Source: Candidatus Micrarchaeota archaeon (GTDB taxonomy: Archaea > Micrarchaeota > Micrarchaeia > Anstonellales > Anstonellaceae). From it: a DNA stretch of 64,000 bases. This document shows positions 36,583 to 55,934 of the stretch, piece after piece. The stretch lies in NCBI GenBank assembly GCA_964392435.1, contig CAYMOY010000002.1, forward strand, positions 116,479-180,478. Reading direction: 5' to 3'. The position numbers and the translations under genes were made by a program. The notes under the pieces are model-generated. The model had not been told where the DNA came from, searched no databases, and saw nothing but the letters and a program-made list of their open reading frames with translations. How positions within the stretch are numbered: position 1 is the stretch's first letter; every line of letters starts with the position of its first letter.

Positions 36583-36668
36583 GCTGGGGTCGCATAACCC
36601 GGTATTGCGGCAGGTTGCTAACCTGTTGGGGGGAAACCTCCGTGCGAGTTCAAATCTCGCCCCCGGCA
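36583..36668 (+). tRNA. tRNA-Ser (anticodon GCU), type II with long variable arm; CCA not encoded
   Basis: Hand-folded. Acceptor GCTGGGG/CCCCGGC (one G-U); 3-bp D stem GCA/TGC; anticodon stem GCAGG/CCTGT, loop TTGCTAA; variable stem GGGGG-AAA-CCTCC; T arm GCGAG-TTCAAAT-CTCGC. Confidence 0.85.
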
Positions 36669-36785
36669 TATTCAACAGGATATGCGAGGCATTGGGGCAG
36701 CAGCTCCAATCGTCCCCGGCATATTCAGCAGGATATGCGGGGCAGCGGAACCGCAGTTCTGCTTGTCCCGGCATAGGCTGAATGG
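36661..36785 (+). repeat. three degenerate direct repeats of the tRNA-Ser 3' end plus ~25 bp
   Basis: Two full ~31-bp copies ccccggcatattca(a/g)caggatatgcg(a/g)ggca at ~52-bp spacing, and a third partial copy cccggcataggctgaat. First copy begins inside the tRNA acceptor 3' strand. Confidence 0.6.
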
Positions 36786-39416: not shown

Positions 39417-40031
39417 TTGATGGAAGAATACAGGCTGCCTGATTTGCCTTATGCATACGACGCGCTGGAGCCCTATATTGACGAGGCCACCATGAGGCTG
39501 CACCACGACAAGCACCACAAGACATATGTGGACAAGTTCAACGCCGCCCTTGCAACAGTGCCGGAGTTCCGCGCAAAGGTGGCAAGCGCCGAAGATGCGC
39601 TGCGCGACCTTTCCGCCGTGCCTGAAAGCATCAGGGGCGCGGTGCGAAATCATGGGGGAGGGGCAGTGAACCATTCGTTTTTCTGGAGCGGCATGACAAG
39701 CGAAAGGCAGTCTCCAAGCGGAAAGCTTGCCGAGGCGCTTTCCAGGAAATTCGGAAGCGTAGACAAGTTCGAGGAGGCGTTCTCCGCTGCCGCGGCAGGC
39801 GTGTTCGGCAGCGGCTGGTGCTGGCTTGTCCTGAACGGAAGAGAGATGGAAATAATGACCACTCAAAACCAGGACAGCCCGCTCTCTGTTGGCAAGATGC
39901 CGCTCCTCACCTTGGATGTTTGGGAACACGCATATTATAAAAAATATGGCCCAGCCAGGGTTGAATACATCAAGAACTGGTGGAATATAGTAAATTGGCA
40001 GAAAGTCGAGGAGAATTATAAGCTACGCTAA
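39417..40031 (+). CDS. sod: Fe/Mn superoxide dismutase
   Basis: LPDLPYAYDALEPYIDEATMRLHHDKHHKTYV ... DVWEHAYY. Confidence 0.85.
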   Translation: MMEEYRLPDLPYAYDALEPYIDEATMRLHHDKHHKTYVDKFNAALATVPEFRAKVASAEDALRDLSAVPESIRGAVRNHGGGAVNHSFFWSGMTSERQSPSGKLAEALSRKFGSVDKFEEAFSAAAAGVFGSGWCWLVLNGREMEIMTTQNQDSPLSVGKMPLLTLDVWEHAYYKKYGPARVEYIKNWWNIVNWQKVEENYKLR

Positions 40032-40847
40032 AGAAGTAGCCGCATTCAAACTAAGCCAGTTTTTCAGATATATAATTTTTTCCTCTTTTAATTTCGTAGT
40101 GCTGATATTTTCAAAGAATCTTTTTATGCATTCTTTTTTATAGACCCTCAGATGGTAAGCTCTTTTTCGATTATCGTCTTTTGGTTCCTGAATGGAATAA
40201 GCTGATATTATGCTCGCTTCATTCAGTATTTTTCTTATGGATTCTAGAAAACCATAGTTCGTATTGGTGATGTCTAGGCATATCTTCGGAGTCCTTCTTA
40301 CTTTCTCTTTTATGATTTTGACACAGCCTTCTGCATCAAAAAAACCTTCAACGAACAACAATTTTGAACGCATGTCTGTTTGTGCCAATAAATTTTCCAA
40401 ATAAACAGAATTCTCTCGCGCCTTTTTGAAAAATGAGTAAAGTTCAAAATTGTTTGACCTAACAAACCACACATTTTTACTTCGAATGATGTATGGTTTA
40501 TCTACTTTGGAAATGCATGAAGCCAGCATCTTAGAATATTTTTTTGTGAATATTCTGTCCCCCACAAGAATAACGTAATTCCTAGTTATTTTCCAATTAT
40601 AGATGCAGCCGTCGCCTAGTAAAGCGCCAAGCACATAGAAAAGCTCTGGTTTTATCATGATTTTTCCTTTGCGCCCGTTGGGTAGGTAATCTCCCTTATA
40701 CCAACAATAAATAGTCCCTCTCGGCAAGGAAAATTTATTATGGACGATATTAACGATATCTCTTCGGGGGACGTTTTCTGCTTTGAGCTTTTCGAAAAGA
40801 GCAAATGCCCGAAGCCTAACTGTGTGATTTGTCCGTATGCCCACCAT
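40023..40847 (-). CDS. LAGLIDADG homing endonuclease (double-motif), AT-rich foreign gene
   Basis: LGALLGDGCIY (motif 1) and FVEGFFDAEGCV (motif 2). Local GC visibly ~35% vs ~58% surroundings. In frame with, and 15 nt downstream of, the truncated integrase ORF. Confidence 0.75.
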   Translation of the reverse strand: MVGIRTNHTVRLRAFALFEKLKAENVPRRDIVNIVHNKFSLPRGTIYCWYKGDYLPNGRKGKIMIKPELFYVLGALLGDGCIYNWKITRNYVILVGDRIFTKKYSKMLASCISKVDKPYIIRSKNVWFVRSNNFELYSFFKKARENSVYLENLLAQTDMRSKLLFVEGFFDAEGCVKIIKEKVRRTPKICLDITNTNYGFLESIRKILNEASIISAYSIQEPKDDNRKRAYHLRVYKKECIKRFFENISTTKLKEEKIIYLKNWLSLNAATSLA

Positions 40848-40862
40848 GTAGATAACTGAATT

Positions 40863-41444
40863 TCAGCTCTTTATATGCCATCTTTGAGTAGGATGCCAGT
40901 GGAACTTGAGCTTGAGGTATAGCAATTCACCTATTCTGCAGCCTGACTCGTATAATGCCAAAATAAGCGCCTTGTCGCGCGGATTAGTGGTCGAGTTGGC
41001 GAGCTTTTGGGCTTCCTCAACGGTCAGCAATTCCTCGGGTAGCTCGTGCTTCTCGTTTTTCAACCTTGGCTTGAGCCACTTTATCACGGCTGGAAATTCC
41101 TCATCCTTTCCGAAAAGCCATTTGTAGAACATCTTGAGCACGATTTTGAAATCGTAGCGTGTGTATTCGGCATAGTTTTTGGAGTCAATGTCGGTAACCA
41201 GCCGAATGAGGTCTGTCTTTGTCGCCTTTGAAAAATCCTTGTTGAGCCACTGCGCAAGCAAGCAGACACAATACATGCACTTGACAACGCGGAGCTTGCC
41301 AGAGCCTTTCGCCAGTCTCATCAGTGCGAAGTTTTCAATCTGTGTTTTGGCTTTCGTAGGCAAGGCGGAGGCCTTCAATATTCCAAGCGCCTTCTCAAAG
41401 TCAGTTTGAGATTTATACATAACGTAATCGTTCATAGGGGTCAC
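40863..41444 (-). pseudogene. truncated tyrosine-integrase paralog (N-terminal ~180 aa only)
   Basis: First ~180 aa nearly identical to the intact integrase at 52748..53956. Diverges after LYLKLK into FHWHPTQRWHIKS-stop; catalytic R/H-x-x-R/Y domain missing. Confidence 0.7.
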
Positions 41445-41547
41445 CTGTGAGCCCCCTGTCCTGCTCTAAGTAGTATTTATATTTAGGCGAGACACACAAC
41501 GGAGGCAGACTCAGGTGTATGTCTAAGGCTAGCAGTAAGACTAGTGC

Positions 41548-41569
41548 ATCATACAAGGTGCAGGGGGAG
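41548..41569 (+). repeat. att-core-like direct repeat of tRNA-Leu 3' end (atcatacaaggtgcagggggag)
   Basis: 20/22 identity to 54084..54105 (atcatgcaagatgcagggggag), which spans the tRNA-Leu 3' terminal 11 nt plus 11 nt of 3' flank. Followed leftward by ~100 bp homologous to the integrase upstream arm. Confidence 0.6.
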
Positions 41570-41616: not shown

Positions 41617-42223
41617 TCAAGCTTTTTTGTCCTTCCTCAGGCACATGAACCAGTCAAGGCAGTATTTCCCCTCCTCCTTCTTTTCCATTCTTTCCTTTGC
41701 AACTCCGCACGAGCCAGGGGTGGGGATTATGACGTCGTCGCCAGGATACCAGTTGGCAGGCGTTGCTATCCCTTCGCTGTCAGATTTCTGCATGGCTACG
41801 AGCAGGCGCTTGATTTCCTCCATGTTCCTTCCGTTGGAAAGTGGGTAGTAAAGTATTGCCCTTACCTTGGCTTTCGCATCAATTATGAAAACCGCCCTCA
41901 CTGCCTGCGTGTTTGAGGCATTGGGCTGCACCATGCCAAACTTTTTTGCGACCTCCATCCTTATGCCCTCAATCAGAGGGAACTTGACCTCGACATTCTT
42001 CATTCCCTTGTACTCGATCTTTTCCTTGATTGTCCTAAGCCACGCGATGTGTGCATATATGCTGTCAATCGACAGCCCGATGAGCTCGCAGTTAAGGCTC
42101 CGCAAATCATCCTGCATGGATGCAAAGGTCATGAACTCGGTTGTGCAGACCGGTGTAAAGTCTGCCGGGTGGCTGAAGAGTATTACCCATTTGCCGGTGT
42201 AGTCTTCCGGGAATTTAAGAATG
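41617..42223 (-). pseudogene. peroxiredoxin (1-Cys/Prx6-like archaeal Prx), C-terminal part, split by IS insertion
   Basis: Reading upstream of the track ORF in frame gives ...[44 protein letters not shown]... (peroxidatic-Cys region). N-terminal 20 codons lie at 42900..42958 on the other side of the IS. Confidence 0.7.
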
Positions 42224-42899
42224 TTGCCTAGTGCTCGCTAAATCCAGCGGGCGTAGCCCGCGAACCCGCCTTCAGGCGGGGGATACAGCGAGCACATTCT
42301 TCTTTTTGACCTGAAAAATAAGTTCCAATAGCGGCGCGGCGGCGCTTTCGCGCCGCCCATGTTTGGCCGACTATTGGAGTTGTAGACTATGACCAGCGAA
42401 AGCTTTGTGAGAAGACAGCACAGCGTAGGAATAAATGCCTTTCACTTTGAGTGGTGCCCAAAGTACAGGTACAAGGTGCTTGGGGGTAACTGGCTGAGGC
42501 GTATTCTGACTGAAAGTCTTTGCCAGACTGCCAAAAAATACGGCATTCAGATTTTTGCAATGGAAATCGCCCTTGACCACCTGCACATGTTCGTAAACCT
42601 GCCTGGCTTGCTTGGTCCAAGCCAAGCAATCAATCTCTTCAAGGGCAGGAGCGCCAAGGCAATATTCGAAAACTGCCCATCATTCAGGAAAACCTATAGG
42701 GCTGGGCACTTCTGGAGTCGTGGCAGTTTCTACAGGTCAGTTAGCAACGTCGGGGCTGACACGATTTACAGGTACATAACAGAACACAGAAGCAAGGAGA
42801 TTACAGAATCAGTTGTTGCGGTGGAAAAGGAGTTTGGGCAGATGAATCTGGTGTCCTTCATGTAGTCGAAAACTGCCCCCTTCAGGGGGCAGATATTTA
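42224..42899 (+). mobile_element. IS200/IS605-family insertion sequence (tnpA only) inserted in the peroxiredoxin gene
   Basis: Carries Y1/HUH transposase; subterminal hairpins cccgcc-ttca-ggcggg (left) and ctgccccc-ttca-gggggcag (right). Joining the flanks restores ...[14 protein letters not shown].... No target duplication evident, as expected for this family. Boundaries +/- 2 nt. Confidence 0.7.
42389..42865 (+). CDS. tnpA: IS200-like transposase TnpA (HUH Y1)
   Basis: LDHLHMFVNL (HuH), conserved Y in C-terminal SFYRSV/YRYI region, ~158 aa typical of IS200 TnpA. Confidence 0.75.
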   Translation: MTSESFVRRQHSVGINAFHFEWCPKYRYKVLGGNWLRRILTESLCQTAKKYGIQIFAMEIALDHLHMFVNLPGLLGPSQAINLFKGRSAKAIFENCPSFRKTYRAGHFWSRGSFYRSVSNVGADTIYRYITEHRSKEITESVVAVEKEFGQMNLVSFM

Positions 42900-42958
42900 T
42901 TCTCGCCCATCGTGGTTTTGGCTGTGAAGCGTGGGGCATCGTCCCCTATCAGCGGCAT
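42900..42958 (-). pseudogene. peroxiredoxin N-terminal fragment (MPLIGDDAPRFTAKTTMGEN)
   Basis: Manual translation. Continues as read-through into the IS hairpin in track ORF 42809..42997. Confidence 0.6.
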
Positions 42959-43054
42959 GCTCGATTGCTTGTTTGCAGGTTCGTCCATCCATCTCACCTC
43001 GCAAAAGGTTGCTGCATGAACATATAAAAATGTTTATGAATAATAATTCAAAAC

Positions 43055-43420
43055 ATGCCAAGGCCTGAAAAGACGAGAAGGATTTGCTGCGAGCCCGGGG
43101 TAAGCTACTTCAAACCGCGGGGAGTCCCTATGGGCGAGCTTGAGGAAATCGGGCTAGGGCTCGACGAGTTCGAGGCTCTTCGTATGCTGGATTTTGCAGA
43201 GCTCGGGCAAGAAGAGGTTGCGAAGAAAATGAACGTCTCCCAGCCCACGCTCTCGCGAATCATCGCATCCGCACGGAAGAAGGTTGCAGAGGCGATCTGC
43301 GGGGGCAAGGCAATACGCATAGAGGGGGGCATATATTCCGTAGCCGGCCCAGGCATGCACCGTTTTTGCGGGTGCCATGGAAGGCACGGCAAACTGAGGC
43401 CCGACACATTACGGAGATGA
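43055..43420 (+). CDS. DUF134/UPF0251-family predicted DNA-binding protein
   Basis: MPRPEKTRRICCEPGVSYFKP...LDEFEALRMLDFAELGQEEVAKKMNVSQPTLSRIIASARKKVAEAI: sigma-70 region-4-like HTH typical of DUF134. Confidence 0.55.
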   Translation: MPRPEKTRRICCEPGVSYFKPRGVPMGELEEIGLGLDEFEALRMLDFAELGQEEVAKKMNVSQPTLSRIIASARKKVAEAICGGKAIRIEGGIYSVAGPGMHRFCGCHGRHGKLRPDTLRR

Positions 43421-43426
43421 TGCAGG

Positions 43427-43828
43427 ATGGAAAACCAGGGACTCTGCCATTTGCACCTGACCATTAACGCCAAGGTGGCGCTGGAAGGGAGGGAGCTTAC
43501 GAAGGAGCGCTGTGAGCGTTTTGTGAAGAAGCTCTTGAAAGTTGCGGACATGAAGCCGCTTTGCGCCCTTTGCTATGCCGATGCACTTGACAAGGGCAAC
43601 CCCGGGCAGAGCTTTGTCCAGATGATAACCACCAGCCACTGCTCGCTCCATTATTTCTCGAAGAGCGGCGAGATTTACTTCGATCTTTATTCATGCAAGA
43701 AATTCGACCCTCAAAAAATCGTTTCCCTGATCCACCGCGAATTCAGGACAAGGGAAAGCACCGTCTCTGTGACCGAGCGAGTCTCCTGCGGCGGCGGCAA
43801 GTCGATGATGTTCCAGAATCTTCATTAA
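43427..43828 (+). CDS. pyruvoyl-dependent decarboxylase proenzyme, SpeH/AdoMetDC-like (small archaeal type)
   Basis: GLCHLHLTINA start and MITTSHCSLHYFSKSGEIYFDLYSCKKF, matching the ESH-x-IHTWPE...D-x-F-x-CG processing-site pattern. Confidence 0.5.
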   Translation: MENQGLCHLHLTINAKVALEGRELTKERCERFVKKLLKVADMKPLCALCYADALDKGNPGQSFVQMITTSHCSLHYFSKSGEIYFDLYSCKKFDPQKIVSLIHREFRTRESTVSVTERVSCGGGKSMMFQNLH

Positions 43829-43837
43829 GGTGGCAAA

Positions 43838-44950
43838 ATGTCTGCGGGCAAACTCACTTTAGCTGTGTTGTTGCTTTTCCTTGCAGAGGCGGCATTCGCA
43901 GCGGGCAATGCAAGCAGCGGCGCCTGCGCATATTTCTTCTATGGGACGGGCTGCCCCCACTGTGCAAAAGTCGAGCCTTACCTCAACTCGATGGAGGGCA
44001 ACGGCAGTCAGATTCTTAAGTTCGAAGTCTACTCCAACCGCACCAACCTGGCGCTGCTTAACTCGTTTTTTGAGGCATACGGCGTGCCCGTCGAAAGCAG
44101 GGGTGTGCCCGCAGCATTCCTGCCGGACACCTACCTGGTAGGGGACGAAGAGATAATCGGCAAGCTCCCCGCCGCTCTTGCCGCCTCCAAGGGGGAGGGC
44201 TGCCCGTCAACCAACATCACATCCTGCGTTCCAGGCTCGGCAGGCGACTCCTCCCCTGTGGAAAAGCTTGGCGAGCTTTCGCTCATAACAATAGTGAGCG
44301 CCGCGCTTGTGGATTCCATAAACCCCTGCGCAATCGCCGTGCTCATAATACTGATGGGCGCGCTTCTTTCGACCGGTGACAGGCACCGCGCGCTTTTCGC
44401 AGGAATCGCCTTCACGCTTGCGGTCTACATTGCATATTTCCTCCTTGGGCTCGGGCTTTTCTCGGCAATACAGATGAGCGGGCTTGCCTATTTTGTCTAC
44501 AAAGCAGTAGGCGTGCTTGCCATACTCATAGGGCTTGCCAACCTCAAGGACTATTTCTGGTACGGGGGCGGGGGGTTTGTAATGGAAATCCCACGCTCAT
44601 GGCGCCCCGCGCTCAAGGGCATGCTCAACAAGGCGACTTCACCTCTTGGCGCGTTTGCAATGGGCTTCGTTGTCTGCCTTTTCGAGCTTCCCTGCACAGG
44701 AGGGCCTTATTTCTTCATACTTGGGCTGCTTGCCGAAAAGTCAACCTGGCTTGCCGCAGTGCCTGTTCTCCTGATATACAACATCTTTTTCGTGGTTCCG
44801 CTCGTGGCGATAACGCTTCTGATATACTTCGGGCTTACAAATGTCGAAAAGGCGGACAAGTGGAAGGAGCGCAACCTGCGGCTGCTGCACCTCGTGGCGG
44901 GAATAGTGATGACCGCGCTCGGGCTCCTTGTCGTGCTCGGCATAGTCTAG
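43838..44950 (+). CDS. thioredoxin-fold (CPHC) domain fused to CcdA/DsbD-like transmembrane thiol-disulfide transporter
   Basis: Signal/anchor, then YFFYGTGCPHCAKVEPYL; membrane domain with Cys-containing TM motifs SINPCAIAV and ELPCTGGPYFF. Confidence 0.5.
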   Translation: MSAGKLTLAVLLLFLAEAAFAAGNASSGACAYFFYGTGCPHCAKVEPYLNSMEGNGSQILKFEVYSNRTNLALLNSFFEAYGVPVESRGVPAAFLPDTYLVGDEEIIGKLPAALAASKGEGCPSTNITSCVPGSAGDSSPVEKLGELSLITIVSAALVDSINPCAIAVLIILMGALLSTGDRHRALFAGIAFTLAVYIAYFLLGLGLFSAIQMSGLAYFVYKAVGVLAILIGLANLKDYFWYGGGGFVMEIPRSWRPALKGMLNKATSPLGAFAMGFVVCLFELPCTGGPYFFILGLLAEKSTWLAAVPVLLIYNIFFVVPLVAITLLIYFGLTNVEKADKWKERNLRLLHLVAGIVMTALGLLVVLGIV

Positions 44951-45547
44951 GTGCATGGCATGATGGAAAACAAGAAGGCTGAGCTCCTGAACAGCAAGGC
45001 TGCGCGCGAGGAGAGCAAGGCAGGCGAGGTGGTTGCGGCTCTGCGCCTCAAGAAAGGCATGCGCGCAGCCGACATAGGCTCGGGCGGAGGCTACTTCTCC
45101 TTCCTGCTTGCCGAAGCAGTGGGGTCGAATGGCAAGGTGTACATGGTTGACACCAACCAAGAGCATCTTGATTTTTCAATGGCGCTGGCAAAAGAAAGGG
45201 GAATAAAAAACGTTGAGCCTGTCCTTGCAAGTGGAGGGATTCCCAACCTTCCGGAGCATAAGATTGACCTGATTTTCATGAGGAGCGTGTGCCACCACAT
45301 TAAAAACAGGGCGGATTATTTTTCGGCGCTAAAGCGCTTACTAGCGCTTGGAGGCAGGGTGGCGCTCATCGATTATTCCCGGGGCCCGTTCCTGCGCTTC
45401 CGCTGGCTTTTCGGGCACTATGTGGAAAGGGATGTGATAAGGAAGGAAATGCTCAAGGCAGGCTTCCATCTTGACGAAAGCTTCGATTTCATTGCACGGC
45501 AGTGGTTCATGGTCTTTTCGCCCTTGCCCTCCCAAGAATCGCGCTGA
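44951..45547 (+). CDS. class I SAM-dependent methyltransferase
   Basis: ADIGSGGGYFSFLLAEAV (motif I). Confidence 0.55.
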   Translation: MHGMMENKKAELLNSKAAREESKAGEVVAALRLKKGMRAADIGSGGGYFSFLLAEAVGSNGKVYMVDTNQEHLDFSMALAKERGIKNVEPVLASGGIPNLPEHKIDLIFMRSVCHHIKNRADYFSALKRLLALGGRVALIDYSRGPFLRFRWLFGHYVERDVIRKEMLKAGFHLDESFDFIARQWFMVFSPLPSQESR

Positions 45548-46379
45548 ATCTGGAAAGGTACGCCATGCTTCGCAGCGCAATTGGGCGGGAGTCTATGGTG
45601 GCGCGCAGGATTTCCCTGCTGAACGGAAGTTCGCCGATTATTTCCAGCCTTCGCCTTTTTGCGAACGACCTTATCCTGCCAGCCATCTTTTTGGAAAGCG
45701 TGCTCTTGTTCAGCACGATTCCGCAGGGCACTCCGAAATGCTTTCCCAGCCTCCACGCCCTTTCAAGGTCATGGAGCGCCGCAGGGGTGGGCTCGGTGAC
45801 GGCAACCAGGCAATCAGCGCCGGATATCGAAGCTATCACCGGGCAGCCTATGCCTGCTGCGCAGTCTATTATGATGTCCTCCGCCCCCTCCTTTTCAGCC
45901 ATCTTCTGTGCAAACGCCCGGACCGCGGTCACTGCTTCGCCCGATGCCTGCTCGCCAATCTCAAGCTCGCCGGTGGCAAGAAGAATGCCGTGCGTTTTTC
46001 CCGTGCTTATGCCGCCTATTCTCTTCCTTGAAGGCGACAGCGCGCCGTTCGGGCAGGCTGCAATGCACGCGCCGCACCCTACGCAAAGCTCGGGCGTTAT
46101 TATGGGCGGGAAATCCTTTGGCGCGGCAATCGCCTTTTTCATGCACACCCTTGCGCAGGCGCCGCAGCGCCTGCATTTCTCCTCGTCAAGCTTCGGCACC
46201 ATGCCCCAGATGGTTTCAGCCTCCTTCATCCTTGCGCCAAGAAGCACATGGGAATTGGGGCATTCCACGTCGGCATCCACAAGAAGCGTTCTGCGCTGCC
46301 GCGCGCCCGCAATAGCAAGCCCGGTGGCTATGAACGTCTTGCCCGTTCCGCCCTTCCCTCCGCTCACCGCAATTTTCAT
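45507..46379 (-). CDS. MinD/ParA-superfamily P-loop ATPase with inserted double 4Fe-4S ferredoxin domain (COG1149-like)
   Basis: MKIAVSGGKGGTGKT; CRRCGACARVC and CVGCGACIAACP; start moved to MKIAV (46379). Confidence 0.65.
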   Translation of the reverse strand: MKIAVSGGKGGTGKTFIATGLAIAGARQRRTLLVDADVECPNSHVLLGARMKEAETIWGMVPKLDEEKCRRCGACARVCMKKAIAAPKDFPPIITPELCVGCGACIAACPNGALSPSRKRIGGISTGKTHGILLATGELEIGEQASGEAVTAVRAFAQKMAEKEGAEDIIIDCAAGIGCPVIASISGADCLVAVTEPTPAALHDLERAWRLGKHFGVPCGIVLNKSTLSKKMAGRIRSFAKRRRLEIIGELPFSREILRATIDSRPIALRSMAYLSRFSAILGRARAKRP

Positions 46380-46392
46380 CAAAAGCACCCGA

Positions 46393-46755
46393 TTAATGGG
46401 AATGGCTTTCGCACCCGTCGCCCTCCTTTGCTTTCCGAAGCTTCCCCTCAAGATGAAGGGCGAATGCCTCGCCCACACTAGTGCCCTTGGGCGCAAAGTA
46501 GACTTCGATTGAATGCTTTTTGCACAACTGCAGCGCCTTTGGCCCCATGCCGCAGCAGACTATGGCGCCCACACCTTTTTCAGCCAGGAGCTCAACCGGC
46601 ATCTTGTCGCCGCCAAAATGCGTGCTGGTGTTCTTTATCGAATTTTTCGCCTTTCCGCCCATCCAAAGCACCAAAAAATAAGGGCTTGGGCCGAAATGCT
46701 CAGCCACGTTCTGCTCTGTGCCGTTTTCCTTTCCAACCGGGAATGCAACCTTCAT
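46393..46755 (-). CDS. NifX/NifB-C-terminal-like (dinitrogenase FeMo-cofactor-binding fold, PF02579-like) small protein
   Basis: MKVAFPVGKENG...VAEHFGPSPYFLV...IVCCGMGPKA. Confidence 0.5.
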   Translation of the reverse strand: MKVAFPVGKENGTEQNVAEHFGPSPYFLVLWMGGKAKNSIKNTSTHFGGDKMPVELLAEKGVGAIVCCGMGPKALQLCKKHSIEVYFAPKGTSVGEAFALHLEGKLRKAKEGDGCESHSH

Positions 46756-47090
46756 CGCTTCACCTTCACTTTTTCAAGCGCCTTTTCCGCCGCGCCTGTC
46801 GCTTCCGCCATTTCAATGCCCCATTTGGAAAGCATATCAGAGGCATTTGGGCCGAATTGCCCGGCAACCACCACGCTTGCCTTTTTTTCAGCAACAAGCG
46901 AGGCTGCGGAAATTCCCGCGCCAGGCGCATCCGCAAACGGGTTGGCGATGCTTTCCAGGAGCCTTGGCTTCCCCTTGCCGGTTTCCAAGAAATTGAAGAC
47001 TGCGCATCTGCCGAAATTCGGGTGCACGCTGCAGGCAGGCCATTTTCCATCGGAGCATATGGCAACTATCCTCTTTTTTTCCCCAGCCAT
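46752..47090 (-). CDS. second NifX/NifB-like small protein
   Basis: RIVAICSDG...FGRCAVFNF...VVVAGQFGPNA; 4-nt overlap with downstream paralog. Confidence 0.5.
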   Translation of the reverse strand: MAGEKKRIVAICSDGKWPACSVHPNFGRCAVFNFLETGKGKPRLLESIANPFADAPGAGISAASLVAEKKASVVVAGQFGPNASDMLSKWGIEMAEATGAAEKALEKVKVKR

Positions 47091-47094
47091 GCAA

Positions 47095-47352
47095 TCACTT
47101 CCCCTTTTTCTCCGAAAGCAGCTTCCTTATCGCTTCGGCCTCGCTTTCGAGCGCGGCAAGCCTTGCCTCAAGCGCAGCCTTGTCGCCTTGCGCCGCCGGA
47201 GGGTATGCCATTGCGCCCCTTCTGCAGCCGCCCCTGCCCATCCCCATGCCGCGCCCTGCGCCCATGCCCCATCCCCTTCCAAACTCCCTCGGGCCCGCAG
47301 GCCCGGTCCCGTCCAAACCCGGCATAATACCACCTAATGAATATGTATTCAT
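47095..47352 (-). CDS. Gly-rich/coiled-coil small protein (DUF5320-like)
   Basis: GMGAGRGMGMGRGG then ALEARLAALESEAEAIRKLL; heads the minus-strand NifX/MinD-Fer operon. Confidence 0.4.
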   Translation of the reverse strand: MNTYSLGGIMPGLDGTGPAGPREFGRGWGMGAGRGMGMGRGGCRRGAMAYPPAAQGDKAALEARLAALESEAEAIRKLLSEKKGK

Positions 47353-47427
47353 AACTGTTTTAATACCAGCAGCCGTGGTAAGCGCTTTTTATTCATTGCC
47401 GCCCTCAAACGCAAGAAGGTCATCTAC

Positions 47428-48288
47428 ATGCAATCCGGCGACATCTGGCTCCCGCTCCTGCTTGCATTTCTCGCAGGGCTGTCAACCGCAATCGGCGGGC
47501 TCATCTGCCTATCCATCCGCAGGTTCGACCAGCGCTACTTGGCATTTGGCCTCGGGCTTTCGGCGGGCGTGATGATTTACGTTTCATTTGCCGAGCTTCT
47601 GGCATCCGCTGTCCTGCAGACCGGCTTTTTCGCGGCAAACGTGGCCTTCTTCGGGGGCATGCTCGCCATCATGCTGATTGATTTTTTCGTGCCGCACAAT
47701 TACATCGCGGAAAGGGTCTGCTCCGGCATGCCAAACGTGCCCATCAGCGCGCCGCTTGGCTCCGCAATGCACAGCCAGTGCAGGCTCCGCGGCTTTGGCA
47801 GAGGGCAAAGGATGAGGCATGGCATGCACAGTCACCACCGCCTTGCAGTTGCAGGCACGTTCACCGCAATCGGGATAGCGATACACAACCTGCCAGAGGG
47901 GCTGAGTGTGTTTCTCGGAGGGGTTGCCGACCCTGCGCTTGGCATCACGCTTGCATTTGCCATAGCAATGCACAACATACCTGAAGGGATTGCAATCGCA
48001 CTGCCGATTTACTACGCCACAAAAAGCCGCGCAAAAGCGTTCCTTTACACTCTCGCAGCAGGGCTTGCCGAGCCTTTTGGGGCGATTCTCGGCGCGCTTT
48101 TCCTCCTTCCGTTCCTTACGCCCAATTTCCTGTCCCTTTCCCTCGCGTTCGTGGGCGGCATAATGGTTTTCATAAGCTTTGACGAGCTGCTGCCGCTCTG
48201 CTTCGAGAACCGCGAAGGCAGCCACGCTTCGATACTGGGCATAATAATCGGAATGATGGCAATGGCGATAAGCCTGCACCTGATTTGA
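47428..48288 (+). CDS. zupT: ZIP-family divalent metal transporter (ZupT-like)
   Basis: HNLPEGLSVF and HNIPEGIAIALP motifs; ~8 TM. Confidence 0.7.
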   Translation: MQSGDIWLPLLLAFLAGLSTAIGGLICLSIRRFDQRYLAFGLGLSAGVMIYVSFAELLASAVLQTGFFAANVAFFGGMLAIMLIDFFVPHNYIAERVCSGMPNVPISAPLGSAMHSQCRLRGFGRGQRMRHGMHSHHRLAVAGTFTAIGIAIHNLPEGLSVFLGGVADPALGITLAFAIAMHNIPEGIAIALPIYYATKSRAKAFLYTLAAGLAEPFGAILGALFLLPFLTPNFLSLSLAFVGGIMVFISFDELLPLCFENREGSHASILGIIIGMMAMAISLHLI

Positions 48289-48305: not shown

Positions 48306-49052
48306 CTAATGGTGCATCGAGCGCGCCACAAGCCAGATTATCGCCGCCCCAGCTATAAGAAGCATGAGCTGAAGTGCCGACTTTTTTGCGCTCTTCTCCT
48401 TGTGGAGCTCGGGCAGGAGGTCGGCGGCTGCGATGTATATGAACATGCCCGCAGTGAACGCAAGCGCAAAGCCCTCCATGTGCTCAACCATGCCTGAGAA
48501 AAAGTAGAAAAGCACCCCTCCGGCAACGGCTGTGAGCGCGGAAAGCAGGTTGAACGCAAGCGCCCTGGCGCGCGAAAAGCCGCTGTACAGCAACAGCCCG
48601 TAGTCTCCTATCTCCTGCGGTATTTCATGGAGCGCTATTGCCACTGTGGTGGTTACGCCAAGCGGAACATCCACCATGAAGGCAGCCGCGATTGCCACTC
48701 CGTCAAAGAAATTGTGCAAGCCGTCACCAAGGAGCGTGAGCGTGCCAAGCGGCTTGTGGTGCTCCTTTTCGCTTCCAGCATGGTGGTGGTGCCAGTGCAC
48801 CAGCTTTTCAAGGCAAAACGCTATTATGATGCCTATAAATACAAATTCAAGAGCAGTATGCGCATCCAGAATTTCCACTGATTCCGGGAGGATGTCGAAC
48901 AGAGCGGCACCAAGAAGCGTGCCGGTGGCAACGCTCACAAGGAAGAAAAGGTAATCGTCGATTTTCCTCTTTTCGAATATGAAAAGCACAATCCCGACGA
49001 GCGAAAGCATGCTGACAAACACCGTGGCGGCAATTATCTCAAACAACACCAT
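48306..49052 (-). CDS. second ZIP-family metal transporter (GufA-like)
   Basis: ALHEIPQEIGDYGLLL, His-rich loop HWHHHHAGSEKEHH. Confidence 0.65.
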   Translation of the reverse strand: MVLFEIIAATVFVSMLSLVGIVLFIFEKRKIDDYLFFLVSVATGTLLGAALFDILPESVEILDAHTALEFVFIGIIIAFCLEKLVHWHHHHAGSEKEHHKPLGTLTLLGDGLHNFFDGVAIAAAFMVDVPLGVTTTVAIALHEIPQEIGDYGLLLYSGFSRARALAFNLLSALTAVAGGVLFYFFSGMVEHMEGFALAFTAGMFIYIAAADLLPELHKEKSAKKSALQLMLLIAGAAIIWLVARSMHH

Positions 49053-49148: not shown

Positions 49149-49541
49149 GTGAAAAACATGCCCATAATCAGCGTTTCAATCGACAATGAAACCCTCTCAG
49201 AACTAGGTGCCATTGAGAAGTCGCTTGGCTTTTCAGGAAGAAGCGAGGCAATACGCGCCGGTGTGCGATCATTGGTCGCAGAGAACAGGAGCGTGGAAAA
49301 TCTGTCAGGCGAAATAAAGGCGGTGCTTCTTCTAGTTCACGAGGAAAACGCGGAGAAAAGCGCCTCCTTCCTTGCGCATGAATTCGAGGACGCGGTTTCC
49401 ACGCACATCCACAGCAACCTCAAACGCGAGAAATGCCTGGAGATATTCGTGCTTGCCGGAAGCGCGGAGCGCATCCGCGCGCTTTTCAAGGCTGCAAAAT
49501 CAAGCAGGAAAATGGAGTATGCGCGGCTCGTGGTGCCATGA
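49149..49541 (+). CDS. NikR-like ribbon-helix-helix metal-responsive regulator
   Basis: N-terminal RHH IISVSIDNETLSELGAIEKSLGFSGRSEAIRAGVRSL plus C-terminal ACT-like domain ...HIHSNLKREKCLEIFVLAG. Confidence 0.55.
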   Translation: MKNMPIISVSIDNETLSELGAIEKSLGFSGRSEAIRAGVRSLVAENRSVENLSGEIKAVLLLVHEENAEKSASFLAHEFEDAVSTHIHSNLKREKCLEIFVLAGSAERIRALFKAAKSSRKMEYARLVVP

Positions 49542-49994: not shown

Positions 49995-51557
49995 ATGGAA
50001 AAATCACGTGCATGCGCGGTTGTAGGAAAAAGCACGTCTTCCCGGTTTTCGGCGCAAACAGACCCCAAAACCGAGCCCGCCGCATCAAAAGCAAGACAAG
50101 AAACGGATGCGCTCAGGAAAGAGGGGAAGCTGAAGTCGCATTGGTACATAATAGCTCCATCCGACAGGACGCTTCACCCAATCGCCCTTGAAAACGGGCA
50201 GATAACCGGCTTTGACGCGTCAAAAGCGGACAAGCTCGAATCCCTGCTGAAATACGAGATGGCAAAAAACAGGGCGGTTGACAGGGAGCCGCCCCACATC
50301 GCTCTCATGCGCAGGCTTGAGCTGGCGGATTACGAGGAAGGCAGCGACCCGGGAAACCTCCGCTTCTATCCTGCCGGCAGGCTGGTAAAATCCCTGATAG
50401 AGGAATACACCACGCGCGAAATAATCAATTACGGCGGGATGGAAGTCGAAACCCCGATAATGTACGACCGCGAGCACCCCACGCTCAAGTCCTACCTCAA
50501 CCGCTTCCCTGCAAGGCAGTACCAGATTCAGACGCCCAACAAAAGCGTTTTCCTGCGCTTCGCGGCGTGCTTCGGGCAGTTTCTGATGATGAAGGACGCG
50601 GTCATTTCCTACCGAGACCTCCCGGTGCGCCCCTATGAGCTTACCCGATATTCCTTCCGTGTCGAGCAGTCCGGGGAGCTTGCCGGATTGCGGCGCCTGC
50701 GCGCATTCACCATGCCGGACTGCCACGCCATGTGCGCGGATTTACCCATGGCAAAGGAAGAGTTCCTGCGCCGCTTCGAAGTGGCGCGCGGTATCCAGGA
50801 AGGCATAGGCTTTTCCTTCCCGGCCGACTTTGAGTTCTCGCTGCGCGCGGTGGAAAGCTTCTACGACGAAAACAAGGATTTCGTGCACTCCATTGTGGAC
50901 AAGATGGGCAAGCCCGCGCTCATTGAGCTTTGGGACGAGCGCTTCTTCTACTTCGTCTTCAAGATGGAATGGAATTTCATTGATGCGCTTTCCAAGGCCG
51001 CCTGCTTGACAACCGACCAAATAGATGTGGAGAACGGAGAGCGCTACGGGATAACCTACGCGGACAAGGAAGGCAGAAAGAAGAATCCGTTTATACTCCA
51101 TCTTTCACCGACAGGAAGCATCGAGCGTGTGATTTATGCCCTGCTTGAGCGCGAACACATGAAAGCCGAGTCGGGCGGAAAGGCGATGTTGCCCATATGG
51201 CTCTCGCCCACCCAGGTTAGAATTATACCCGTGTCTGACAAATTCAACGAGGCTGCGCATAGAGCGGCAGAAGAGTTGGCGTTGCATCCCATTCGCGCGG
51301 ACGTGGACGACCGACCCGACAGGATTGGAGCGAAAATACGCAAAGCCGAGTCTTCCTGGGTTCCCTATATTGCTGTAATCGGGGAAAAAGAGCTTGCCAG
51401 CGGAAATCTAACCGTGCGAATCCGTTTCACCGGAGAGCAGAAGGAATTCAATGCCCAGTCTCTTTCGCAGGAGATACTTTCGGAAACATCGGGCATGCCG
51501 TTCAAGAAGCTCTCACTTGACCGCTCGCTAGACAAGCGCCCGATTTTCGTCGGTTGA
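49995..51557 (+). CDS. thrS: threonyl-tRNA synthetase, catalytic/anticodon-binding form without recognisable N-terminal editing domain
   Basis: Class II motifs FRVEQSGELAGLRRLRAFTMPDCH and LHLSPTGSIERVIYALLE; anticodon-binding C-terminus. No TGS or editing-domain motifs in N-terminal ~100 aa. Confidence 0.7.
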   Translation: MEKSRACAVVGKSTSSRFSAQTDPKTEPAASKARQETDALRKEGKLKSHWYIIAPSDRTLHPIALENGQITGFDASKADKLESLLKYEMAKNRAVDREPPHIALMRRLELADYEEGSDPGNLRFYPAGRLVKSLIEEYTTREIINYGGMEVETPIMYDREHPTLKSYLNRFPARQYQIQTPNKSVFLRFAACFGQFLMMKDAVISYRDLPVRPYELTRYSFRVEQSGELAGLRRLRAFTMPDCHAMCADLPMAKEEFLRRFEVARGIQEGIGFSFPADFEFSLRAVESFYDENKDFVHSIVDKMGKPALIELWDERFFYFVFKMEWNFIDALSKAACLTTDQIDVENGERYGITYADKEGRKKNPFILHLSPTGSIERVIYALLEREHMKAESGGKAMLPIWLSPTQVRIIPVSDKFNEAAHRAAEELALHPIRADVDDRPDRIGAKIRKAESSWVPYIAVIGEKELASGNLTVRIRFTGEQKEFNAQSLSQEILSETSGMPFKKLSLDRSLDKRPIFVG

Positions 51558-52747: not shown

Positions 52748-53956
52748 TTATTCCTCCAACAATTCCTTGTCCAGCCCCATCGCAAAAACCTTCTTGACCA
52801 GAAGCGCCTTCACCTCCGGGTCCTGCATAAGGACGTTCATTATCCCATTCCCCTGTTTGTTGTAGTCGCTGATGAGCACCTTTTCGTCAAACGGGTTGCC
52901 GCACCTGCCGCAGAAGGACTGCGTCGGCGAGTTCTTTTCCTTGCAGCGGGAGCAGATCCGAAGGTCGAGCTTGGGCTCTTTTTCGATTGGCTTGTCTTTC
53001 ATGGAATACATTTGCAGAAGCGCCGAGTCAACATCCCTGCCGGATAAATGAACATAGGTGGCAGCCATCTCGCTTCCCTGCGTCCAGCCGAAATACTCTT
53101 TCATTTGTGCTTCGGTCAGCTTGTTTGCGAGGGAAGTTGCTCGGCTGTGCCTGAACAAGTGCGGATAAATGCGTTTTCTTATGCCGCTTGCCTTGCTTGC
53201 CCTTCGGAGCATTGCGAGTATTGACGGGTACGAGCAAGGCACTGGCTGGTAGCGGGCAAGCCTTGCAGGCCATAATGGAGCGTCCGGATTGTTTTTGTCC
53301 GGATGTTCCTGAAGCCATGCGGCAAGAACCTGAGCGCTGGCAATTATTCTTACCCTTCTGCTGCCAGTCTTGCCGTTGACGATAAGCACAACCCCGTAAT
53401 TGTCGAACTGGACGTTCTTGAGCTTGAGGTAAAGCATTTCACCTATGCGGCAGCCGGACTCGTATAATGCCAAAACAAGCGCCTTGTCGCGTGGATTTGT
53501 GGTCGAGTTGGCGAGCTTTTGTGCCTCCTCAACGGTCAATAATTCCTCTGGCAGCTTGTGCTTTTCATTTTTCAGCCTTGGCTTGAGCCACTTTATGACC
53601 TTGGGAAATTCCTCGTCTTTCCCCAGAAGCCACTTGTAGAACATTTTGAGCACGATTTTGAAGTCGTACCTCGTATATTCCGCATAGTTTTTGGAGTCAA
53701 TGTCTGTAACCAGCCGAATAAGATCGGTCTTTGTCGCAGTCGAGAAATCCCTGTCGAGCCACTGGGCGAGCATTCGGACACAGTACATGCACTTGACAAC
53801 GCGGAGCTTGCCAGAGCCTTTGGCAAGGCGCATACGTGCGAAGTTTTCGATTTGTGTTTTTGCCTTCGCAGGCAAAGTCGAGGCTTTAAGCCGTTCCAGT
53901 TCCTGCTCGAAGTTGGTCTGCGATTTGTACATCACGTACTCGTTCATAGGGCTCAC
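52748..53956 (-). CDS. int: tyrosine recombinase/integrase (intact, 402 aa)
   Basis: C-terminal HLFRHSRATSL ... YVHLSG (R-H-R-Y catalytic pattern). ~140 bp from the 3' end of tRNA-Leu, same strand. Confidence 0.8.
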   Translation of the reverse strand: MSPMNEYVMYKSQTNFEQELERLKASTLPAKAKTQIENFARMRLAKGSGKLRVVKCMYCVRMLAQWLDRDFSTATKTDLIRLVTDIDSKNYAEYTRYDFKIVLKMFYKWLLGKDEEFPKVIKWLKPRLKNEKHKLPEELLTVEEAQKLANSTTNPRDKALVLALYESGCRIGEMLYLKLKNVQFDNYGVVLIVNGKTGSRRVRIIASAQVLAAWLQEHPDKNNPDAPLWPARLARYQPVPCSYPSILAMLRRASKASGIRKRIYPHLFRHSRATSLANKLTEAQMKEYFGWTQGSEMAATYVHLSGRDVDSALLQMYSMKDKPIEKEPKLDLRICSRCKEKNSPTQSFCGRCGNPFDEKVLISDYNKQGNGIMNVLMQDPEVKALLVKKVFAMGLDKELLEE

Positions 53957-54083
53957 CCCACGATGAGTCCCCTGTCCTGCTTGACCTTCTATATATACTT
54001 AGGCGAGACACGCAACGAGGTGAAGTTAGGGCATTGACGGATGACAGGCGAGGGGCTGTAAGATGCGGCGGTACACCTATAGA

Positions 54084-55882: not shown

Positions 55883-55934
55883 CTCATCAAAACCTTTTTC
55901 ATGCGTTTTCCCATAAACGGATATAAGCCTGCCC

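Follow-up and report, generated by a model that had tools for sequence, protein, structure and literature searches.

What do eight closely packed genes in the genome of a Candidatus Micrarchaeota archaeon (Anstonellaceae) encode, and which known system, if any, do they represent? The genes lie at positions 43055-47352 of a 64-kb stretch of contig CAYMOY010000002.1 (assembly GCA_964392435.1), which we analysed as a whole and call the window. From the list of open reading frames (ORFs) and curated profile searches, the minus strand carries a compact operon encoding a DUF5320 protein, two NifX-fold proteins (A and B) and a MinD-family ATPase with an inserted ferredoxin (MinD-Fer). Converging with it, a plus-strand operon encodes, in this order, a DUF134 protein, an AdoMet_dc-like protein, a membrane protein with thioredoxin-like and CcdA domains (Trx-like/CcdA) and a methyltransferase. 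A preliminary description of this DNA, made from the letters alone, had called the domains correctly, and all the families that it named were confirmed by profile searches; it was right in substance but missed that the system already has a name. The answer is a known kind of system, the 'orange protein' (ORP) gene cluster, in the form that it takes in Micrarchaeota (DPANN). In the window this cluster is minimal, single-ATPase, Mrp-less and probably DUF134-operated.

The locus is an orange protein gene cluster

Weak NCBIfam matches to 'MrpORP' are given by both NifX-fold ORFs and by the ATPase. In Desulfovibrio vulgaris the ORP complex comprises Orp3 and Orp4 (MinD-like proteins with two [4Fe-4S] ferredoxin motifs each), Orp5, Orp8 (the orange protein, with a PF02579-type 'Di-Nase' domain) and Orp9, which is MrpORP; the genes form two divergent operons controlled by sigma-54 and OrpR, orp5-orp4-orp3 and orp7-orp8-orp9, and the complex is 'putatively' assigned to cell division (PMC6345978, PMC8359166, PMC4641369). 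Orp3 co-purifies with Orp4 and Orp8, and MrpORP hands Fe-S clusters to them (PMC6345978). An archaeal origin of the cluster has been suggested earlier (PMC8359166), and AF2378-AF2380 of Archaeoglobus fulgidus have already been linked to the Desulfovibrio cluster, AF2378 (NifX) and AF2380 (CbiA superfamily) being constitutively highly expressed (PMC3949148). Our fold-search output also contained AF2382 (PDB 2ph1), an Mrp-like structural-genomics orphan whose locus number is two away from that of AF2380; an Mrp component may thus belong to the A. fulgidus cluster.

Six lines of evidence identify the window locus as ORP-type: the profile matches of its proteins, their matches to ORP and MTH1175, the enrichment of the gene set around homologous ATPases, the MrpORP neighbours of these ATPases, an orp5-orp4-orp3 gene order in another genome, and gene fusions. 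All eight ORFs are present at the coordinates of Table 1, with family assignments that pass curated profiles (marginally for DsbD_2/CcdA). The preliminary description had proposed PF02579 as the profile against which the two NifX-like ORFs should be judged, and both pass it with scores about twice the cut-off.

MinD-Fer starts at the ATG at 46379 (MKIAVSGGKGGTGKT, 290 residues) and not at the TTG at 46496, reading the minus strand. It has a deviant Walker A motif, GGKGGTGKT, with the signature Lys, and a MinD fold. Residues K9, K14, D35, D37, D172 and C179 are the same as in the window in each of the 151 full-length homologues; for the eight ferredoxin cysteines the figure is 99-100%. Cys179 lies in switch II, seven residues past the Walker B Asp, which is the spacing of NifH Cys132. 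Cys40 is invariant in the 62 closest aligned relatives and matches the window in just 20% of the 151 homologues, so a NifH-like four-cysteine interface cluster was rejected as a general feature. In the AlphaFold (AF2) model (predicted local distance difference test score 93.2, predicted template modelling (TM) score 0.88) the nearest solved folds are MinD, FleN and FlhG, followed by ApbC, ATPase-type HypB, ParA/Soj and NifH-type structures. Their TM scores are low (≤0.63) because none of them has the ferredoxin insertion of ~90 residues, which follows switch I and precedes the next core strand; the complete architecture was matched by no solved structure in the fold search (best TM 0.63). The predicted C-terminal helix 272-286 is basic and moderately amphipathic, with a hydrophobic moment (≤0.61) that does not exceed those of internal helices.

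The two NifX-fold proteins match MTH1175 best among PDB sequences (A, E=1.3e-11; B, E=2.3e-9) and also match the Desulfovibrio gigas ORP, 2wfb (A, E=6.2e-6; B, E=3.7e-3); TM1290 and PH0822 are found among the matches too. Protein A is of an NFGRC type and tail-less, and protein B is of an HFGPS type and ends in a short GDGCESHSH. Taken by itself, PF02579 membership could suggest that these proteins are carriers of NifB-co or FeMo-co (iron-molybdenum cofactor) for a nitrogenase, or an enzyme akin to it, whose genes lie elsewhere in the genome, and the NifH-like position of Cys179 and the NifH-type structures among the fold matches would be in line with it. We hold this to be highly improbable. 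Among the window ORFs scanned there is no nif gene (nifHDK, nifEN, nifB), as the preliminary description had implied, nor any suf or mrp gene. No NafY or NifX structure is matched at E ≤ 0.01, while MTH1175, ORP, TM1290 and PH0822 are; and the cluster is found in DPANN and candidate phyla radiation (CPR) organisms of minimal metabolism. The IssA clade, in which MTH1175 has been placed, is moreover separate from the NifX/NafY/NifB clade (Vaccaro et al., PMC5524996).

The DUF5320 protein most likely starts at its second ATG (47325, minus strand), since residue 10 is the first in the Pfam match, this codon has a GGTGGT ribosome-binding site ahead of it, and the first ATG falls inside the palindrome described below. 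Its PF17253 score (30.7 bits) is barely above the cut-off of 27, and an orthologue at another locus (L004, below) and gene fusions back the assignment. The segment ahead of the coiled coil has 34% Gly, 14% Arg plus Lys, one Cys and an isoelectric point (pI) of 11.3. Across loci, the non-coiled-coil parts of DUF5320 contain 25-39% Gly, 10-19% Arg plus Lys, 1-7% acidic and 6-20% aromatic residues, usually with exactly one Cys and a pI of 10.5-11.9.

The minus-strand genes had been described as translationally coupled through 4-nt overlaps. This holds for a single junction, where NifX-fold A and B share an ATGA (46752-46755); the other two junctions are gaps of 4 and 13 nt. At their convergent 3' ends the methyltransferase and MinD-Fer genes share 41 nt (45507-45547). 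The same 41-nt overlap is seen in L001, a Micrarchaeia locus, and leaves no space for separate terminators.

Table 1. Genes, candidate regulatory sites and neighbouring features of the ORP-type locus, in window coordinates (bit scores are followed by the family cut-off where there is one).
Feature	Positions	Strand	Remarks
MinD-family ATPase with inserted 2x[4Fe-4S] ferredoxin (MinD-Fer), Orp3/Orp4-type, 290 aa	45507-46379	-	CbiA/MinD P-loop and two Fer4 motifs
NifX-fold protein B, HFGPS type, 120 aa, C-terminal tail CESHSH	46393-46755	-	PF02579, 57.1 bits (26.3)
NifX-fold protein A, NFGRC type, 112 aa	46752-47090	-	PF02579, 53.1 bits (26.3)
DUF5320 protein, 76 aa, cationic Gly/Arg-rich segment with one Cys, then coiled coil	47095-47325	-	PF17253
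DUF134 helix-turn-helix (HTH) protein, 121 aa, likely regulator	43055-43420	+	PF02001, 88.4 bits (27)
Divergent AdoMet_dc-fold protein, 133 aa	43427-43828	+	PF02675, 53.3 bits (25)
Membrane protein, 370 aa: N-terminal signal/transmembrane segment, Trx-like domain (C39-P-H-C42), CcdA/DsbD-type transmembrane domain	43838-44950	+	
Class-I S-adenosylmethionine (SAM) methyltransferase, 198 aa (GTG start) or 195 aa (ATG start at 44960)	44951-45547	+	PF13847, 64 bits
TATA-like box TATAAAAA, putative promoter of the DUF134 operon	43023-43030	+	6 nt upstream of palindrome; read from sequence
Palindrome TGAATAATAATTCA, candidate DUF134 operator 1	43037-43050		Ends 4 nt ahead of DUF134 ATG
Palindrome TGAATACATATTCA (minus strand), candidate DUF134 operator 2	47338-47351		12 nt from DUF5320 ATG
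TATA-like box TATTAAAA, putative promoter of the DUF5320 operon	47358-47365	-	6 nt upstream of palindrome; read from sequence
zupT	47428-48288	+	
Second ZIP transporter gene	48306-49052	-	
Regulator with NikR_C domain	49149-49541	+	
Full tyrosine integrase (52748-53956) with adjoining tRNA-Leu(taa) (54095-54179), minus strand	52748-54179		PF00589, 69.7 bits; right border of putative island
Integrase N-terminal fragment, upstream region and 22-nt tRNA-Leu match	40863-41569	-	Possible old att/int remnant; left border of putative island

The gene set is conserved across anaerobic archaea and bacteria

An alignment of the ATPase was used to scan GTDB species genomes and gave at least 595 loci, of which the best 80 were kept; counts refer to 83 non-duplicate loci from archaea and bacteria, labelled L001 and so on. 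Six-frame ORFs of these loci were searched with hidden Markov models iterated from the window proteins, and genes were called near when within 3 kb of MinD-Fer and far when beyond 4.5 kb. NifX-like genes are near MinD-Fer in 88% of the loci, at a density of 0.342 per kb versus 0.014 far from it (~24-fold). Mrp-like genes follow with 31% (0.064 versus 0.010 per kb), DUF134 with 28% (0.059 versus 0.003) and DUF5320 with 24% (0.052 versus 0.010), the last two percentages being lower bounds since the models were built from few sequences. The methyltransferase is near in 20% of the loci (0.044 versus 0.017 per kb) and Trx-CcdA in 10% (0.025 versus 0.021). The preliminary description had stated that NifX-like, MinD-ferredoxin and DUF134 genes recur together in anaerobes and had suggested a co-occurrence check across genomes; with this check run, the set, DUF5320 included, proves to be conserved as a unit in many other archaea and bacteria.

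The closest correspondence is found in L001, where the order of the eight genes is identical and the proteins are 65-79% identical in amino acids. This shared order, together with the ~24-fold density of NifX-like genes near MinD-Fer, places the arrangement far beyond chance. L002 has the same set without the AdoMet_dc-like gene, with a DUF134 fused to DUF5320 heading the operon, and L004 reads DUF5320-DUF134-NifX-MinDFer (the contexts of these three loci were taken from precomputed Pfam annotation). Both L001 and L002 retain the pairing of an NFGRC-type with an HFGPS-type NifX-fold protein. Among the best 80 loci the DPANN archaea are represented by Micr-, Woese-, Pace-, Aenigmat-, Nano- and Iainarchaeota, other archaea by Bathyarchaeia, Methanosarcinales, Methanophagales and Methanocellaceae, and CPR bacteria by Saccharibacteria, Parcubacteria and Falkowbacteria; the other bacteria are Desulfobacterota, Omnitrophota, Aminicenantes, Planctomycetota, Spirochaetes, Clostridia, Bipolaricaulota, Dehalococcoidia and Thermodesulfovibrionales.

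Two tandem ATPase genes, in the manner of orp3 and orp4, are present in 67 of the 83 loci; the window and its nearest DPANN and CPR relatives (L001, L002, L004 and L006-L015) have one. In three Micrarchaeota loci (L017, L021 and L023) a NifX gene is followed by two tandem MinD-Fer genes whose products are 38-42% identical to the window ATPase, so that this phylum holds both the one- and the two-ATPase form.

Fusions and gene orders connect these loci to the bacterial cluster. Beside MinD-Fer pairs, L024, L035 and L068 carry Mrp::NifX fusions that are bona fide MrpORP (NF041136, 518-533 bits versus a cut-off of 450); these loci belong to Desulfobacterota and to one unclassified bacterium. The presence of MrpORP next to MinD-Fer homologues ties the family of the window ATPase directly to the bacterial ORP cluster. 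In L073 the order DUF134-MinDFer-MinDFer is that of orp5-orp4-orp3. DUF134::DUF5320 fusions are confirmed by Pfam in L002 and L028, and NifX::DUF5320 fusions are found above the Pfam cut-off in L041, L053 and L077 and just below it in L040, L050 and L051; in these six the DUF5320 segment is C-terminal to the NifX-fold domain.

A candidate DUF134 operator precedes both operons

A 14-bp palindrome, TGAAT-N4-ATTCA, occurs at exactly two sites in the 64 kb, one ahead of each operon, against a chance expectation of 0.10, and none of 100 shuffles reached two. At both promoters of the module the layout is identical: a TATA-like box, six nucleotides, the palindrome (Table 1). Promoter comparison shows the palindrome kept at the same two places in L001 (8873, 13396) and L002 (8677, 12885). 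It stands ahead of DUF5320 in these two loci and in L004 (8801), L012 (5695), L013 (6977; a Parcubacterium), L020 (421, 457) and L042 (5867, 5891), and ahead of the leading DUF5320, DUF134 or NifX gene also in L011, L017 and L040 (2767; Methanosarcinales). The density of exact sites is 0.93 per kb in the 300 nt upstream of DUF134 or DUF5320 versus 0.0077 elsewhere and 0.067 in other, crudely defined non-coding DNA.

Other lineages have variants at the same place, namely TGCAT-N4-ATGCA, TGAAC-N4-GTTCA, TGCGC-N4-GCGCA and TGTGC-N4-GCACA, and perfect palindromes of the general form TGNNN-N4-NNNCA reach 1.42 versus 0.085 per kb, a 17-fold enrichment overall and 9-fold against non-coding DNA. The half-site goes with the start of the DUF134 recognition helix, which in the window reads V-S-Q-P-T. 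TGAAT is paired with [IV]-S-Q-[PA]-T in 11 of 11 cases and TGCAT with [IF]-H-Q-S-T in 4 of 4; TGCGC, TGTGC or GCGCA accompany S-R-[KG]-T (L027, L074, L055 and L029, the last two having imperfect palindromes recognised by eye), and TGAAC accompanies S-R-P-T (L019). This pairing cuts across taxonomy: the Methanosarcinales locus L040 differs from L056 and L085, and the Woesearchaeota locus L020 differs from L028.

The sites at both promoters, their recurrence ahead of DUF134 and DUF5320 genes and the covariation of helix and half-site argue that DUF134, itself a protein with sigma-70 region 4-like HTH matches, very probably binds the palindrome and controls both its own operon and the ORP-type operon. 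It would do so as a dimer, and the controlled genes would include those of the AdoMet_dc-like protein, the Trx-like/CcdA protein and the methyltransferase. The position of the site between the TATA box and the start of transcription, usual for archaeal repressors, suggests that DUF134 is a repressor. The predicted operator, with its covariation, appears to be new: our literature search found no paper describing binding of this palindrome by DUF134, and searches on DUF134, DUF5320 and their COG numbers yielded nothing functional. Palindromes with one mismatch number 6 in the window, the two exact sites included, versus 2.05 expected; this is near chance and we claim no further regulon members. 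Scans for bacterial-type promoters and terminators, which do not apply to an archaeon, were at chance level in the window.

Fe-S binding by the DUF134 core was considered as a general idea and rejected, because C11, C12 and C82 are the window residue in 12% of homologues. The C-terminal tail of the window protein has an FCGCHG, and Cys-rich ribbons are found solely as C-terminal additions in other lineages. Many of these tails consist of a Gly/Arg-rich stretch followed by a six-Cys ribbon, CxCPxCG, ~12 residues, PC, 4-5 residues and CPKCG (L004 9093-9578, L012 6036-6512, L018-L020, L025, L027, L038, L042, L056 and L085). In two CPR loci, L007 (DUF134 at 3130-3357) and L013 (9885-10172), the six-Cys module is a separate small protein directly upstream of DUF134. 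The module is covered by no Pfam family, and may be a small Fe-S protein of the Orp5/Dde_3197 type.

A putative carrier or store for metal-sulfur species

We sought to understand what such a module would handle. For two relatives of its NifX-fold proteins a bound metal-sulfur species is described. IssA of Pyrococcus furiosus (PF2025) joins a PF02579-type domain to a 70-residue cationic, Gly/aromatic-rich tail with a single Cys (pI 10.7), and stores iron and sulfur as anionic thioferrate (PMC5524996, PMC8351635). According to work cited in the MrpORP paper, which itself points to IssA of P. furiosus, the D. gigas ORP binds [S2MoS2CuS2MoS2]3- non-covalently, and in vitro also clusters with M = Fe, Co, Ni, Cu or Cd (PMC6345978). 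By analogy, we infer that the module would carry or store metal-sulfur species of an inorganic kind, Fe-S being the likeliest. In its complete wording, to which we give slightly better than an even chance, this is an ORP-type module in which NifX-fold proteins, DUF5320 and MinD-Fer form a DUF134-regulated carrier for inorganic Fe-S (or other metal-sulfide) species.

Judging from homologues, MinD-Fer and the NifX-fold proteins would form a complex, like Orp3, Orp4 and Orp8 of D. vulgaris. Bound to the NifX-fold proteins there would be a metal-sulfur species, inorganic and anionic, with hardly any ligands, or none, from the protein, comparable to the Mo-Cu-S cluster of ORP and the thioferrate of IssA. 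The further steps are the least certain. By means of nucleotide-dependent dimerisation and of its Fe-S clusters, the ATPase would load this species, reduce it or let it go. The invariant switch-II Cys179, plus Cys40 in the clade of the window, might join in this action. DUF5320 would supply in trans the role of the IssA tail, neutralising the charge of the inorganic Fe-S species; the shared chemical character and the NifX::DUF5320 fusions suggest such a role. The purpose may be the supply of Fe-S cofactors or metal buffering under reducing conditions.

Several observations weigh against this proposal. There is one ATPase gene in the window instead of the Orp3/Orp4 pair, and no Mrp or MrpORP, neither among all ORFs searched with the iterated MinD-Fer model, which did pick up Mrp-like genes at the other loci, nor among the ORFs scanned with curated libraries. 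The likeness of DUF5320 to the IssA tail is one of composition and not of homology, and neither NifX-fold ORF has a cationic tail of its own. The rarity of Cys40 means that a NifH-like interface cluster would not be general. Even in Desulfovibrio, where a role in cell division is proposed, the cargo of ORP-type systems is not settled; the preliminary description, in calling the substrate unknown, agrees with the literature, in which the biochemical substrate is likewise not settled. As for regulation, perfect palindromes are found in just 18 of the 39 loci that have DUF134 or DUF5320, the covariation comes from a small sample whose members are in part phylogenetically linked, and the unconserved core cysteines of DUF134 leave its route of signal sensing not evident. 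The palindrome could in principle be the target of a different regulator, for instance the NikR-like protein encoded nearby; L004-type loci, which have the palindrome without NikR, speak against this binder.

The same homology to ORP (2wfb) allows for another cargo. If the NifX-fold proteins bound a Mo(W)-Cu sulfide cluster like the one reported for the D. gigas protein (cited in PMC6345978), the module would handle or detoxify thiomolybdate, thiotungstate or copper, a role for which its setting among transition-metal transporters and a NikR-like regulator would be suitable. We find this unlikely: both NifX-fold ORFs resemble MTH1175, which has been placed in the IssA clade, more closely than ORP, the window ORFs scanned include neither a Mo/W transporter nor a molybdopterin gene, and the constant partners of the family, Mrp and the 2x[4Fe-4S] ATPase, point to Fe-S chemistry.

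These constant partners, NifX-fold cofactor-binding proteins and Fe-S carriers (Mrp) and not division proteins, also bear on the proposal made for Desulfovibrio. On that model the MinD-like ATPase would take up a membrane or polar position and assist in siting cell division, its metal clusters serving as redox sensors only. The deviant Walker A motif with its signature Lys, a MinD/FleN/FlhG-like fold as the best structural match and the basic, moderately amphipathic C-terminal helix would suit such a device, and the literature adds the proposal itself and the polar localisation of MrpORP (PMC6345978, PMC4672049). Yet MinC, MinE, ParB or another division partner is linked to the module in none of the loci inspected (Pfam contexts of L001-L005, and the window), and its Micrarchaeia neighbours are metal uptake and regulation genes. 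The window does contain ftsZ (32930-33886), but ~11 kb away and unlinked, and the division role is called putative by the Desulfovibrio papers themselves. A positioning device thus appears quite unlikely here.

The Fe-S carrier proposal can be stretched further. DUF134 proteins might be widespread palindrome-binding autoregulators, with co-evolving helix and half-site, that control an ATP-driven Fe-S store of the IssA/thioferrate type, assembled in trans and worked by MinD-Fer; this store would be a main route by which DPANN archaea, CPR bacteria and other anaerobes buffer Fe-S. We regard this extended version as tentative and are inclined to doubt it. If it were true, a DUF134-controlled Fe-S store would be the long-sought function of the ORP complex.

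The plus-strand operon

The DUF134 gene that leads the remaining plus-strand genes has the operator ahead of it in the window and in both L001 and L002, so the Trx-like/CcdA and methyltransferase genes are probably co-regulated with the ORP-type operon in the Micrarchaeia lineage. One possibility is that this second operon exports reducing equivalents to an extracytoplasmic thiol-disulfide domain.

The 370-aa membrane protein matches DsbD_2/CcdA (PF13386) marginally, with 26.5 bits versus 24.9. Its transmembrane domain has INPC and LPCTGGP motifs, which gives it the DsbD-type arrangement of one cysteine in each of two transmembrane helices together with a Trx-like partner. The thioredoxin part has no Pfam match, and the PDB sequence matches of the N-terminal domain are thiol-disulfide oxidoreductases only (weak similarity to ResA and DsbA; ResA, E=0.0014). 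Orthologues adjoin the module in L001, L002 and L085, and about ten loci, from several phyla, have a strong homologue no more than 6.5 kb away. The preliminary description had counted a Trx-CcdA fusion as part of a conserved-looking neighbourhood. The gene is confirmed, and its place there was overstated: given the near-equal densities close to and far from MinD-Fer, a general partnership of Trx-CcdA with ORP systems is unsupported.

The methyltransferase has arsenite methyltransferase and UbiE/MenG types as its best NCBIfam matches, all far under the cut-offs. Close orthologues adjoin MinD-Fer in L001, L002 and L006, and strong ones lie 1.4-2.3 kb from it in the Bathyarchaeia loci L060 and L067, with an enrichment of only 2.6-fold overall. 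Methylation of the Arg/Gly-rich segments by this enzyme would be pure speculation and was dropped from our model.

SpeH enzymes carry an E-S-H motif at their self-processing site. The AdoMet_dc-like protein, described earlier as SpeH-like, reads T-T-S-H at this position: it belongs to the PF02675 fold family (Table 1), yet it lacks the Glu-Ser site and scores 34.5 bits where the SpeH equivalog TIGR03330 has its cut-off at 75.65, and it has no PDB sequence match. Among ~80 other loci an orthologue is found solely in L001 (12624-13019), which makes the gene lineage-specific. The core of the protein, residues 57-95, is invariant between these two copies.

Metal genes, host and a possible integrated island

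The closest named relative of the window ATPase is from Candidatus Micrarchaeia (78% identity), with metagenome proteins reaching 91%. RadA, encoded outside the segment discussed below (57512-58522), has its best matches in Micrarchaeota/Anstonellaceae (83-95%), and other window genes (CDC48, S-layer, aRF1, FtsZ, Lon, ArgG, RadA, PurP, MVD) are ordinary archaeal housekeeping genes. These affinities identify the host as a DPANN archaeon, and the module shares the affinity of the core genes.

Next to the module lie the metal genes of Table 1, and the adjacency to Zn/Ni homeostasis genes reported in the preliminary description is borne out and echoed in relatives. ZupT passes its NCBIfam equivalog with 270 bits versus 252. 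NikR orthologues of 69-79% identity are near the module in L001 and L002, and NikR_C is present in all three Micrarchaeia loci; the metal context of relatives consists of NikR_C with ZIP or ZnuABC, FeoAB/DtxR and a ferritin-like gene. This conserved metal-homeostasis neighbourhood fits the reading of the module as an Fe-S carrier or store.

The module had also been placed inside a putative integrated island, that is, the 12.5 kb between 41.57 and 54.09 kb (a peroxiredoxin gene with an IS200-type insertion, the module, the ZIP genes, NikR and threonyl-tRNA synthetase) would be the cargo of an integrative element at tRNA-Leu, and the module a mobile accessory trait. The adjoining of tRNA-Leu and a full tyrosine integrase is suggestive. 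So is the left-hand remnant: its integrase fragment (40863-41444) is ~90% identical to the full integrase over 180 aa, and a 601-nt direct repeat comprising the integrase 5' part and its upstream region, 83% identical to 53417-54017 and in the same orientation 12.5 kb apart, precedes, in register, a stretch in which 20 of 22 nt agree with the 3' end and flank of tRNA-Leu (54084-54105; E=0.046), as tandem integrations could leave. An IS200-type TnpA and a low-GC LAGLIDADG remnant at 40-43 kb, and flanks without synteny to L001 and L002 beyond the module and NikR, may be added.

Against this, the GC content of the module (0.52-0.58) is close to the window mean of ~0.54, the deviant value of 0.43 being confined to 40-42 kb, and the segment holds threonyl-tRNA synthetase, normally single-copy and essential. 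The repeats are old, at just 83% identity, and the tRNA match is short, so that no recent single integration is documented. The best relatives of the module are Micrarchaeota, as for RadA outside the segment, and in L001 and L002 it stands amid housekeeping genes (FEN1, riboflavin kinase, S2P protease) with no integrase within 10 kb. Integration at tRNA-Leu is therefore a minority possibility and the island is not established; the module itself is not island-specific.

The integrase fragment is truncated just past its ESGCRIGE motif, and forms part of the low-GC (0.43) remnant at 40023-41569 together with a LAGLIDADG-type ORF. Next to it, a 1-Cys peroxiredoxin gene is apparently split by an IS200/IS605-type Y1 transposase gene (41617-42132, minus; 42389-42865, plus; 42809-42997, minus): AhpC-TSA profile positions before 48 are left unmatched by the C-terminal piece, and some 20 residues of the N terminus (MPLIGDDAPRF...) are encoded on the far side of tnpA. 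At tRNA-Ser(gct), in the region 36583-36744, a 31-nt direct repeat (36714-36744, ~94% identical) copies the last bases of the tRNA and its flank and may be an old att scar. The threonyl-tRNA synthetase (49995-51557) has 520 aa only, with a class II core and anticodon domain; over its N-terminal ~170 residues Pfam gives no match, and an editing domain is not recognised there. On the minus strand, 54833-57065 encodes two tandem PurP-type paralogues (DUF1246/DUF1297, ATP-grasp).

What the minimal system offers

The ORP set is among the most widespread 'anaerobe-specific' gene clusters, and ~20 years of study in Desulfovibrio have passed without a settled function. The window provides a minimal form of it, with one ATPase, two NifX-fold proteins, DUF5320, DUF134 and no Mrp, and near-identical modules are present in DPANN and CPR organisms, retained in very small genomes. 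What is added here is the predicted DUF134 operator with its helix/half-site covariation, and the analogy of DUF5320 with the IssA tail, both of which are directly testable; the operator is also a way to define a regulon, and the analogy hints at which metal species to seek. If the idea of a carrier or store is true, it would join the ORP and IssA literatures.

Comparison with known systems

The window cluster shares with that of Desulfovibrio a MinD-family ATPase with two [4Fe-4S] ferredoxin motifs (as in Orp3 and Orp4), single-domain PF02579 proteins (as Orp8) and a distribution mainly confined to anaerobes. At L073 a DUF134 gene stands ahead of the ATPase genes, in the position that orp5 has in Desulfovibrio, and bacterial DUF134 proteins carry Cys-rich tails; DUF134 may be the counterpart of Orp5. 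The window cluster differs from the Desulfovibrio cluster in its two NifX-fold genes and separate DUF5320 gene, and in its convergent operon with Trx-like/CcdA, methyltransferase and AdoMet_dc-like genes. Control differs too, a palindromic operator with archaeal TATA-type promoters contrasting with sigma-54, OrpR and integration host factor; no gene for an enhancer-binding protein was seen in the window.

Among the SIMIBI metallocentre ATPases (MinD/FleN/FlhG, Mrp/ApbC/Nbp35, HypB, CooC, NifH), MinD-Fer is akin in its deviant Walker A motif and, according to the model, in a P-loop fold of the dimer-forming kind, and it resembles NifH in the placement of the switch II Cys. Unlike them, it has the ferredoxin insertion and is without the CXXC motif of the Mrp type. 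The NifX-fold proteins, for their part, resemble structural-genomics orphans in which the fold occurs outside nitrogenase contexts, all of them direct PDB sequence matches of window ORFs: MTH1175 (1eo1), TM1290 (1rdu), TM1816 (1o13/1t3v), PH0822 (2yx6) and MJ0327 (2qtd/2kla).

The comparison with IssA is in part one of rearranged pieces. IssA, which forms nanoparticles, is not known to need a MinD-Fer ATPase, and in the window the cationic segment is a separate protein ending in a coiled coil and not a tail of the NifX-fold proteins. The NifX-fold domain family is the same (IPR003731/PF02579), with MTH1175 of the IssA clade as the best match of both proteins by PDB sequence, and DUF5320 provides the system with a cationic, Gly-rich, aromatic-containing, single-Cys segment of high pI. 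In other genomes the two parts are joined, and a NifX-fold domain followed by a C-terminal DUF5320 segment amounts to an IssA-like architecture.

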